From a virus (Duplodnaviria > Caudoviricetes), in the IMG/VR virus record IMGVR_UViG_2904200584_000016, positions 6,688 to 70,687 of that record: 64,000 nt of DNA; one strand, 5' to 3'. The translations under genes and the position numbers were made by a program. Positions within the stretch are counted from its first letter, which is position 1, and each line of letters opens with the position of its first letter. A model generated the notes under the pieces. It saw nothing but the letters and a program-made list of their open reading frames with translations, was not told where the DNA came from and did no database searches. Positions 19,818 through 22,437 of this stretch are shown here, in pieces.

Positions 19818-20303
19818 ATGGGTAAAATGGATAAAAAAGAAGCTAAAAAATTTTTAAAGGTTGTAGATATGAATATAGATAAAATAAAGGAAGAAGCTAC
19901 GAAAATTTATAAAGAATGCTACTTAATAGAAACAACTGATACTATAAGAATTTCTATAAATTTGAAAGGAGTTGTAAAAAGCACAATTTCAAGTTGGCAA
20001 GGCTATTCAGATGATATTTTTAATATGAGAGAAATTATTGTCTATGAATTTAGTCAAGGAGAAGTTCAAATTGAAGATCTTTTAGGAGAACTTTGTTTTT
20101 TAAATGATTACGAAGAATTTGCTACTTGGTGTGACACTGAAAGCGAAACTTTGAATTGGAATAGTTATGAAAAATTCAACAAAGAAAATTTTGACGAATT
20201 AGTCGAGAGAAATATAGAAGATAGTTTACCAGATTTTTTGGAAGAATTGAGCGAAAGTATAGAAAATTGTAAACAAGAATTAAAATCAATGATTGAAATT
20301 TAA
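19818..20303 (+). CDS. Acidic hypothetical protein
   Basis: ORF with AGGAGG RBS; last gene before the mini-array. Confidence 0.7.
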   Translation: MGKMDKKEAKKFLKVVDMNIDKIKEEATKIYKECYLIETTDTIRISINLKGVVKSTISSWQGYSDDIFNMREIIVYEFSQGEVQIEDLLGELCFLNDYEEFATWCDTESETLNWNSYEKFNKENFDELVERNIEDSLPDFLEELSESIENCKQELKSMIEI

Positions 20304-20336
20304 ATGAAAGAGTATTATTATTAATGTATATAGTAT

Positions 20337-20501
20337 CTTTAAGATTAACTACAAGGGATTTAAAATATTTTTTAATTTATTTAGAAATGATATTGTAATA
20401 AGAATTTTCAGATTAACTACGAGGGATTTAAATGGCAATTTAATTTATAGAGAAATGATATAATGGCAATTATTTTTAGATTAACTATTTGGAAATAAAA
20501 A
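20337..20501 (+). CRISPR. Degenerate mini-CRISPR array: three 29-bp repeats, two 39-nt spacers, type I-B-like
   Basis: Repeats at 20337, 20405, 20473 (period 68); repeats 2 and 3 match the clostridial I-B repeat GTTTTAGATTAACTATATGGAATGTAAAT (recalled) at 22/29 and 23/29; no cas operon in window. Confidence 0.7.
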
Positions 20502-20530
20502 CAGTGTATTCGATAAATACACTGTTTTTT
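20497..20530. terminator. Bidirectional intrinsic terminator
   Basis: AAAAACAGTGTATT-CGATA-AATACACTGTTTTT between the array and the convergent gene. Confidence 0.8.
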
Positions 20531-20542
20531 AATGCTAAAGAT

Positions 20543-20842
20543 TTAGTTACTATAATAACTTAATCCTTCGATTATAAATCCTACGTTCATTGTCATTTCT
20601 GCTTCGTCGCTTTGCAATATTCCTTCCGTAAATTCGCTATCGCTTGATAATGTTATTTTTTTCCTTGCCACCATTTCCAAAATTGTTTGAAATAGTTTAA
20701 TTTTCATATTCTTATCAAGTCCAGCGTATTGCAAATAGTTTGCTATTTCTTGTGAAAATTTAGTTAATTCTGATTTAGTCATTTTTTTAGATAATTCTTT
20801 TCCAATATTCAAATAAACTTTTTTAGATTGTTCAACATTCAT
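20543..20842 (-). CDS. Small helical protein, possibly Cas11/Cas8b C-terminal-domain-like
   Basis: ~99 aa from MNVEQ; IGKELSKK...LFQTILEM...FTEGILQSD...VGFIIEGL parallels the Cas8b1 CTD pattern (by eye). Confidence 0.4.
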   Translation of the reverse strand: MNVEQSKKVYLNIGKELSKKMTKSELTKFSQEIANYLQYAGLDKNMKIKLFQTILEMVARKKITLSSDSEFTEGILQSDEAEMTMNVGFIIEGLSYYSN

Positions 20843-21249
20843 TTTTTTCAACCCCTTTTTCAAGTTATAATTCAATTATATTTTAAAAATGCTAATACTT
20901 CAAATATAAATATTTTTGTTTAAATATAAAACTGATTTCAATAATTTGTATTTAATATTTAATAGATTGTGTTACTTGAAGTTAATAAATAAATTAGAAA
21001 GATATATGGTACTAAAATCTAGTAATAAGTTAAAGTATAACAGCACTTTAGGGTTAATTTTGTAGTAAGTATATAAAGTCAATATGCTGTAATTTAGTAT
21101 ATTGACTTTATTGTTTACTTATTAATAGACATAATATTGTAAAAAAATGATATAGTTTAGAAAGATATGTAGATTAAACTTAGAATTAAAAGATTAACAT
21201 AGTATGACAATCGTAATCTCGTGTAGTATACTTAAATTGAGGTGATTAC

Positions 21250-21822
21250 ATGACTTGGAATGATTTGAAAAATAATGATATAACATATATAGTTGAATAT
21301 ATTAATAATAAGTTAAATAATAGTAAGAGCTTGACTAAAGTTGCTATAGAACTTGGAGTGTCTGAAAGCAGTATAAGAAAATATCTCACTAAAAGAGGTT
21401 ATAAGCGTGTAAATGATAAGTATGTGTTTATTGGTGACAATAGTATGACAAAGGTAGTAAACAATAGACAACAGAGTAATAATGATAATACATTTAATAT
21501 GACAATAGAAGATGACAACAGTCACAACATAGTAATTGACAACCAATTTAAAAATAATATAATTTCTTTAGCAAAAGACTATGACAAGATACAGCATGTA
21601 TTAAATTGGTTTGAGAATAAAGAAGATACAAATGTAATAGAGGTTGTACAGGATGGTATTAAGATTGATTTACCTTCAAAAGATGCTATAAGAACTACTG
21701 TTAGGTTGAATAAAGATGCATGGAACTTATTTGATGAGTTTTGTAAAAAGTTTAGAGAGTTTAATAAGTCTGATTTGATGAGCATGGCATTACTTGAATA
21801 CGTCAATAAGTATGATAAATAA
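21250..21822 (+). CDS. DNA-binding protein (N-terminal HTH, C-terminal RHH)
   Basis: SLTKVAIELGVSESSIRKYL; RTTVRLNKDAW...KSDLMSMALLEY. Confidence 0.75.
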   Translation: MTWNDLKNNDITYIVEYINNKLNNSKSLTKVAIELGVSESSIRKYLTKRGYKRVNDKYVFIGDNSMTKVVNNRQQSNNDNTFNMTIEDDNSHNIVIDNQFKNNIISLAKDYDKIQHVLNWFENKEDTNVIEVVQDGIKIDLPSKDAIRTTVRLNKDAWNLFDEFCKKFREFNKSDLMSMALLEYVNKYDK

Positions 21823-21898: not shown

Positions 21899-22072
21899 AT
21901 GGTCGATAAAATAACAATAGATGAAGTACTTGAATTTATAAAATCAAAAGGTTATATATATAGTCAAGAAATTAGAAAAGAATTAGATAATCTTTGTCCG
22001 GTTTCTGATAATGAAATAGATAAGTGTATAGAAGAAAATGATGATGTATTCAGAAGGTTGGCAAGTAAATGA
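21899..22072 (+). CDS. Phd-like antitoxin of Doc
   Basis: 57 aa ending DDVFRRLASK; ATGA overlap with doc; absent from the ORF track. Confidence 0.7.
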   Translation: MVDKITIDEVLEFIKSKGYIYSQEIRKELDNLCPVSDNEIDKCIEENDDVFRRLASK

Positions 22073-22437
22073 TTACACTTGAATATATATGTAAAATTAA
22101 CAAAAAGATGATTGAAAGATATGGTGGAGCTGGAATGGGTATTAGAAATAAAAATCTTGCTATAAGTATAATTGATGGTATAAACCAGGAGGTATTTGGT
22201 AGAGTTATGTATCCTACAGTTGAAGAAAAAATATCTCATATTGTAGTAGGTATTATACAAGGCCATATATTTATAGATGCAAATAAAAGAACTGGATTAG
22301 CTGCATTACTAATACTTTGTGACAAATATAATATAGATGTGAATTATGATAAAGAAAATTTAGCTATAGAAATAGCTTTAAATAAAATAAATGAGTCTGA
22401 TTTGAGTAATATGTTAAAAAAGTGGAATAAAAAATAA
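22069..22437 (+). CDS. doc: Doc (death-on-curing) toxin, Fic family
   Basis: HIFIDANKRTG motif; YPTVEEK. Confidence 0.9.
   Translation: MITLEYICKINKKMIERYGGAGMGIRNKNLAISIIDGINQEVFGRVMYPTVEEKISHIVVGIIQGHIFIDANKRTGLAALLILCDKYNIDVNYDKENLAIEIALNKINESDLSNMLKKWNKK

Follow-up and report, generated by a model that had tools for sequence, protein, structure and literature searches.

A phage-borne type I-B repeat array beside acrIB2 as a probable mimic of CreA-like guides at a Clostridioides difficile cas operon

A CRISPR-like mini-array in a C. difficile phage and the acrIB2 homolog directly upstream of it probably act as one unit, in which the array would mimic host CreA RNAs of type I-B (a viral "Cracr" array) and would keep a CRISPR-guarding candidate toxin repressed while AcrIB2 acts. 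The comparison behind this reading is between the spacers of phage arrays and a creA-like module beside cas6 in C. difficile-type genomes. An earlier note on this DNA had proposed that the two spacers are guides for transcriptional silencing of two promoter alleles, for example those of the host cas promoter. The allelic, CreA-like part of that proposal holds, in that the PAM-proximal 15 to 16 nt of two allelic host pseudo-spacers recur in S1 and in the usual form of S2, but the predicted target is not the cas promoter. Because the predicted target is instead the promoter of a toxin-like open reading frame (ORF) located between creA and cas6, the element is better described as CreA/CrePA-like than as CreR-like. 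The PAM-flanked promoter match that the same note had suggested looking for was found, as CC-flanked sites that shortly precede a promoter next to the host cas operon.

The mini-array and its acrIB2 neighbor

The window, meaning the whole 64-kb stretch of viral DNA that was analyzed, comes from a virus record of 70.7 kb and represents a phiCD211/phiCDIF1296T-like C. difficile phage, with the 3-kb stretch around the array 95% identical over 76% of its length. The mini-array occupies positions 20337 to 20535 on the plus strand, begins 33 nt past the ORF of the acrIB2 homolog, and consists of three repeats, two spacers, and a terminator (Table 1). When the canonical C. difficile type I-B repeat was taken from genuine arrays of the host genomes, the window repeats were identical to it at 20 to 22 of 29 positions, and to the first repeat of the creA-like module in host genome G001 at 23 to 24 of 29. 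Within the 64-kb window, no further exact copies of the repeat pattern were found besides R1 to R3, and no cas genes were found near the array. A search of the window against Rfam at gathering thresholds returned no match; at lax thresholds, R2 gave a weak, sub-threshold match to CRISPR-DR14 (21 bits, against a gathering score of 45). Folding of the array RNA identified the terminator as the sole stable element, with no significant structure otherwise (z = −1.64), and the combination of a terminal repeat and a hairpin is also found in genuine C. difficile arrays.

Table 1. Positions of the mini-array elements and flanking genes in the window
Feature	Position	Strand	Description
acrIB2 homolog, 161 aa	19818-20303	+	50% aa identity (E = 3e-56) to phiCD38-2 gp27; phrog_4337; immediately precedes the array, in the same orientation
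Promoter-like site, candidate array promoter	20293-20321	+	TTGAAA, 17 nt, TATTAT; overlaps the acr stop codon; 10/12 in a consensus scan, in which 10/12 sites were no commoner than in shuffles
Repeat R1	20337-20365	+	29 nt, CRISPR I-B-like; 20/29 to canonical C. difficile repeat, 23/29 to first repeat of G001 host creA
Pseudo-spacer S1, class A	20366-20404	+	39 nt; putative mimic of the G001 host creA allele
Repeat R2	20405-20433	+	29 nt; 22/29 to canonical repeat, 24/29 to first repeat of G001 host creA
Pseudo-spacer S2, class B	20434-20472	+	39 nt; putative mimic of the L149 host creA allele; carries TGATATAAT at 20456-20464
Repeat R3, degenerate, terminal	20473-20501	+	Continues into the terminator stem
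Intrinsic terminator	20497-20535	+	Inverted repeat: perfect 14-bp stem, 5-nt loop, T-run
Convergent conserved gene, phrog_4021	20543-20875	-	70% aa identity to phiCD38-2 gp28; accompanies the acr-array pair; possible role in the mechanism

The phiCD38-2 protein gp27, to which the upstream protein was matched, is an experimentally validated AcrIB2 that has been proposed to act as a DNA mimic (PMC10732046). Used as a query against the genome contigs, the Acr protein found no related loci. No terminator-like element was seen between the acr gene and the array, and the final ~15 nt of the array leader resemble the host creA promoter region. RNA-library contigs from one study, which show no ends or strands, span the acr gene and the array in two of three runs and have a hole there in the third. 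Run X22, which is without the phage, contained 17 raw reads from the host allele-B creA, on both strands and too few to show processing.

The two spacers are related to each other to a degree rarely seen among acquired spacers. As the earlier note had claimed, they share a 23-nt core that is identical at 21 of 23 positions, and they diverge over the five 5'-terminal bases and at the 3' end. When 104 genuine C. difficile spacers from host loci were used as a null model, only 1 of 5,356 pairs reached at least 21/23, and none of 3,000 shuffles of S1 and S2 did so (maximum, 18).

Several other features lie close to the array. Short RNA-library contigs covering part of the phrog_4021 gene (window positions 20592 to 20802) reached depths of ~7,000 to 38,000 in all three runs of one study, compared with ~280 to 780 on the acr/array side and ~700 on the other flank, and could represent a very abundant short RNA from this gene or its antisense strand. 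A 49-aa ORF follows (20916 to 21065, plus strand), whose phiCD211 homolog is annotated as "CRISPR-associated endonuclease Cas3-HD"; this name looks unfounded, since the ORF had no family match in Pfam or NCBIfam. After this ORF is a 17-bp hairpin (21073 to 21111). In phiCD211 (positions 5615 to 7176 of locus L001), two transposase genes of an insertion sequence lie between the array region and a 190-aa gene labeled "integrase," an insertion that is absent from the window (~21070 to 21250). A Fic/DOC-family gene (Pfam PF02661, E = 6e-11) is located 1.5 kb downstream of the array (22069 to 22437, plus strand).

Spacer classes in phages and a creA-like module beside host cas6

Judged by sequence comparison, the array is conserved beside acrIB2 across unrelated C. 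difficile phages and is built from three fixed spacer classes. It is present in 29 phage records and 28 IMG/VR contigs, and it follows acrIB2 homologs in phiCD211, AR1086-1, phiCDHM13, phiCD38-2, CD1801, and phiCD418. For counting, 35 arrays were parsed: that of the window, those of 6 phage loci, and those of 28 IMG/VR contigs among 32 hits to a repeat-plus-core pattern; the other four hits (L119, L122, L123, and L131) were chance matches lacking repeats and were dropped beforehand. Spacers in the 35 arrays fell into classes A, B, and C plus one A' variant, and the order was invariably A, B, C. Eighteen arrays had the architecture ABC, 8 had AB, 3 had AC, 3 had B, and one each had BC, C, and A'. 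An acrIB2 homolog precedes 34 of the 35 arrays, the remaining one being truncated by the end of its contig, with 55 to 100% aa identity to the better-matching query (the window or the phiCD38-2 protein). A phrog_4021 gene lies downstream of 34 of 35.

Variation within the spacers is strongly polarized. Positions 1 to 15 are constant within each class, save for position 2 of S2 in the window and position 12 of class C, and nearly all other changes occur from position 16 onward. Class A, for example, has four variants among 29 copies that differ only at positions 24, 30, and 36. The exception in the window is a G at seed position 2 of S2 (window position 20435), where 29 of 30 class-B spacers, and the relatives from runs X1 and X2, carry T.

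Two departures from the common design were seen. A single-unit class A' array is found in L062 (G003 contig 23) and L140 (IMG/VR); compared with class A, the 3' part of its spacer is nearer to the host pseudo-spacer of allele A, its upstream Acr homolog is 55% identical, and the usual downstream gene is absent, so that it may be an intermediate form. In phiCD481-1 and phiCD506, the match to the array region is limited to ~100 nt (two pieces that make up 53% of the query), and this version may be a spacer-poor or remnant element.

Host genomes were found by a repeat-pattern scan. When four C. difficile-type genomes were scanned for the spacer core, it was matched, with two mismatches, ~450 nt upstream of a cas6 gene in G001. 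A creA-like mini-array lies there, between an ABC-transporter-like gene and cas6, in an operon without cas1, and the same arrangement occurs in three C. difficile-type genomes (G001, L149, and G011). The G001 module (L065, minus strand) comprises, in order, a repeat-like sequence, a 38-nt pseudo-spacer, and a degenerate repeat. About 45 nt past the degenerate repeat is a CCA followed by a site that matches pseudo-spacer positions 1 to 5 and 7 to 12; a promoter (TTGACT, 18 nt, TATAAT) starts 33 nt after this PAM and is followed by a Shine-Dalgarno sequence, a 56-aa ORF, a hairpin, and then cas6.

The three modules are allelic, and each corresponds to one phage spacer class. The G001 pseudo-spacer (allele A) begins with the class-A sequence; that of L149, a metagenome contig with a Cas6 98% identical, begins with the class-B sequence (PAM CCG, −35 box 28 nt after the PAM); and that of G011 (L151) begins with the class-C sequence (PAM CCT, −35 box 27 nt after the PAM). 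In all alleles, the promoter of the small ORF is near consensus (TTGACT, 17 to 18 nt, TATAAT), with a Shine-Dalgarno sequence before the ORF. A fourth locus, the metagenome contig L150 (Cas6 95%), carries an empty site at which the ABC-transporter-like gene runs straight into the cas6 leader, and its 300 nt upstream of cas6 contain no creA-like array and no small ORF. The guard module is present in three of the four genomes carrying this cas6, and the empty site in L150 marks it as an insertion/deletion polymorphism. In G001, cas1 is found only at the other cas operon, which places the module at the adaptation-less "partial" operon, the one reported to be interference proficient and to be the target of AcrIB2 (PMC10732046). 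Upstream of cas6 in full operons, there was a regulator gene but neither a mini-array nor a seed match.

The small ORF encodes a basic, hydrophobic protein of 56 to 58 aa with a lysine-rich N terminus and a hydrophobic stretch at approximately residues 33 to 47, and its frame is kept across alleles. It had no family match in Pfam, NCBIfam, or PADLOC, and its few relatives are exclusively Clostridioides proteins that are hypothetical or unnamed. We infer that this ORF encodes a toxin. It is on record in only about 30 contigs, a count to be read with the fact that small ORFs are often uncalled; this figure and the presence of the module in three of four genomes suggest that many hosts may be without the target.

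The host pseudo-spacers can pair, at positions 1 to 5 and 7 to 10 or 11, with a CC-flanked site upstream of the small-ORF promoter. The PAM-proximal end of this site is 27 to 33 nt upstream of the −35 box, and the PAMs are CCA (allele A), CCG (allele B, a PAM that has been called noncanonical [PMC4556805]), and CCT (allele C). Position 6 is mismatched in all three host pseudo-spacer/target pairs. This fits the rule that type I effector complexes flip out every sixth base.

Phage spacers share their PAM-proximal bases with the corresponding host pseudo-spacers, at 15 of 15 positions for class A with G001, 16 of 16 for class B with L149 (15 of 16 for the copy in the window), and 16 to 17 of 17 for class C with G011. 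To compare guides with targets, seeds were scored over positions 1 to 5 and 7 to 11. Class A matched the G001 target at 10/10, and the common form of class B matched the L149 target at 10/10 (window S2, 9/10). Class C scored 9/10 on the G011 target and also 9/10 on the L149 target, and its host pseudo-spacer likewise scored 9/10. The other cross-allele pairs scored 4 to 8 of 10. Genome-wide, CC-flanked seed sites numbered 7 in G001 and 3 in G011, of which one per genome is the small-ORF promoter. In gapped alignments, homology to the target extends along most of each pseudo-spacer, but a one-base insertion after approximately position 10 to 12 breaks the continuous pairing (2 to 5 of 1,000 shuffles scored equally well). 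Homology interrupted in this way would explain why the guides look promoter proximal and would bind without licensing cleavage.

Two further seed sites were considered and set aside. A class-C seed target in prophages of G003 and G004 (L085 and L082) has a CCA and the exact 11-nt seed, with no pairing past 11 nt and with counts near the control level. This site (locus position ~1501, minus strand) is intergenic, flanked by a gene for a 74-aa helix-turn-helix-like protein and a divergent gene for a 166-aa protein, and could be due to chance or be a phage-versus-phage target. An S1 seed with a PAM at window position 61811 is antisense inside a 299-aa ORF and was judged to be chance.

Alternative explanations for the array

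If the array were purely an RNA decoy, its repeats alone would soak up Cas6 and Cas7, and the content of its spacers would be irrelevant. This is how Racrs, solitary mimics of CRISPR repeats that phages encode, often in antidefense loci, and that engage Cas proteins, are described (PMC10651486), and the element studied here is likewise a phage-borne repeat element beside an acr gene. Sequestration is also within the Cracr model (10.1101/2024.10.29.618823). What the decoy does not account for is the spacers: positions 1 to 15 are almost invariant, with change mostly confined to position 16 and beyond, the invariant 5' parts are those of three host pseudo-spacer alleles with promoter-located targets, and the existence of three distinct, ordered classes is left without a reason. 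In Racrs the repeat alone acts, in contrast to the conserved seeds found here, which match host regulatory guides. We regard a pure decoy as improbable, and the duplicated decoy unit offered as an alternative in the earlier note is not needed to explain the array, though sequestration of Cas proteins may contribute.

A second alternative takes the spacers as functional DNA, either as real promoters with one extended −10 box per unit or as protein-binding sites such as a partition or iteron array. As promoters they would be compatible with the viral CreA mimic, as an addition to it. The string that had been singled out in S2 as an extended −10 box, TGATATAAT, is indeed present and recurs in 16 of 23 class-C spacers (counted by eye). 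It is poorly conserved, however, and its role as a promoter is only putative. Class-B spacers retain the TATAAT hexamer in 28 of 30 copies but the TG in only 14 of 30 (counted by eye), the box falls within the variable 3' part of the spacers, and the host pseudo-spacers are without it. A consensus scan of the plus strand found no sigma-70-like sites inside S1 or S2, except for a 9/12 site extending across R1 as far as the first base of S1. As for protein binding, parA is nearby in small relatives, but there is no parA beside the array in the window, and the homologous host element sits at a cas operon rather than on a replicon. Little credence is given here to either form of this explanation as a replacement for a guide function.

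The homologous array of phiCD211 was read earlier as an ordinary adaptive CRISPR array directed against competing phages ("inter-phage warfare"), and that region is annotated as a CRISPR repeat region. C. difficile prophage arrays do resemble the element in the window: they have the same repeat family, no phage cas genes, and a reliance on host Cas proteins (PMC4556805), as well as a terminal degenerate repeat fused to a terminator. Among 50,697 phage records, S1 has 25 full-length matches, all in C. difficile phages, at 97 to 100% identity. Every one of these lies inside a homologous array and is preceded by repeat sequence rather than by a CCW PAM, and no other protospacer for S1 or S2 was found in the 50,697 records, the remaining matches being weak and in unrelated phages. 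Prophage arrays have diverse spacers that match other phages (PMC4556805), unlike the three fixed guides found here, which are related to each other, match in full length only their own homologs, and keep their order across 35 arrays without turnover. The repeats, too, diverge from the canonical sequence. An adaptive function is thus very improbable.

Finally, a neutral relic, in which a repeat-spacer unit was tandemly duplicated and has no function, would fit the 75% identity between the two 68-nt units but is scarcely credible, as the seed is conserved and the 3' part variable, and conservation is higher in the array region (91 to 97% identity in 25 of the 29 phage records with a match) than in the 3 kb around it (~79 to 84% to small phages), in phage families whose flanking Acr proteins fall to 55 to 58% aa identity.

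Proposed mechanism and relation to known systems

As a viral CreA mimic, the array would be transcribed together with acrIB2 or shortly afterwards, and host Cas6 would cut the transcript into crRNA-like RNAs that load into host Cascade. Cascade loaded with a mimic would then bind the guard promoter and keep the toxin-like gene silent, binding without cleavage being expected because pairing ends after about 12 nt, and the mimic RNAs may also divert Cas proteins from immune crRNAs. In this manner, the phage could disable CRISPR immunity by AcrIB2 without setting off the host guard toxin. S1 would serve allele-A hosts and S2 allele-B hosts, and the third unit found in relatives would correspond to allele C. 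The two observations that originally drew attention to the spacers would also be accounted for: the similarity of S1 and S2 would reflect the homology of the host promoter alleles, and their promoter-like appearance would come from the descent of pseudo-spacers from the DNA upstream of the promoter, with which they pair.

Some points count against this mechanism. Were AcrIB2 a DNA mimic, DNA binding by the mimic-loaded Cascade should be hindered as well, and the phage pseudo-spacers are of full length, unlike the I-F Cracrs that escape AcrIF24. In addition, the S2 copy in the window has a seed mismatch at position 2, the PAM of allele B is CCG, class C reaches only 9/10, and some hosts lack the module.

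In a more elaborate version, which is unlikely, host and phage would be engaged in an allelic arms race, with the acrIB2-array pair serving as a skeleton key of two layers. Hosts would escape by a joint change of positions 1 to 5 in creA and in the promoter site, or by loss of the module, and phages would answer with arrays that hold a separate mimic for each allele. In the window, the position-2 change of S2 would be a key for an unsampled host allele, and the −10-like boxes, found only in phage copies, would be internal promoters that give each unit its own transcript. No mention of such a design was found in the passages of the Cracr preprint that were compared (10.1101/2024.10.29.618823).

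The viral CreA mimic proposed here agrees in most respects with Cracr arrays, which are phage-borne units of repeat and pseudo-spacer located outside the cas locus and linked to an acr gene, whose RNAs have more than 9 PAM-proximal bases in common with a host CreA-type RNA (at least 9 serving as the criterion), and which may carry several units addressing allelic variants of one CRISPR type in related strains (10.1101/2024.10.29.618823). The element in the window is phage encoded away from any cas locus, has I-B-like repeats, shares at least 9 bases with the host guides, and has a PAM-flanked partial target at the promoter of a toxin-like ORF. It differs from the arrays of the preprint in being type I-B, in having up to three units, in its partner AcrIB2, and in pseudo-spacers that are not shortened; these are full length (36 to 40 nt), in contrast to the shortened I-F Cracrs that escape AcrIF24 (10.1101/2024.10.29.618823). 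The 30 arrays listed in that preprint are all I-C, I-E, or I-F, and I-B is named there only as a target type among 219 candidates. Neither "Clostridi" nor "difficile" appears in its main text, and its Table S2 may list these elements. The Cracr type of element is known from the preprint.

The host element, in turn, has the anatomy described for CreTA/CrePA (10.1101/2024.01.05.574328; PMC12737573), namely, a repeat, a pseudo-spacer, and a degenerate repeat inside the cas locus, with partial PAM-flanked complementarity to a site that closely precedes the −35 box of a small neighboring gene. This anatomy was found in three alleles upstream of cas6, in the operon without cas1. With CrePA it shares a protein ORF as the candidate toxin; unlike CrePA, the 56- to 58-aa product has no KilA-C domain and no family match. 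No paper was found that describes a CreTA-like module or a Cracr in C. difficile.

On this reading, an array once attributed to inter-phage warfare would be an RNA counterdefense coupled to the only validated anti-CRISPR of C. difficile, and the host locus points to a toxin guard, of a kind we did not find described in this species, on the cas operon that gives this important gut pathogen its interference. If true, viral CreA mimics would extend to type I-B arrays. The same reading predicts which host lineages would abort infection upon CRISPR inhibition, which would bear on CRISPR-based antimicrobials and on work with C. difficile phages.
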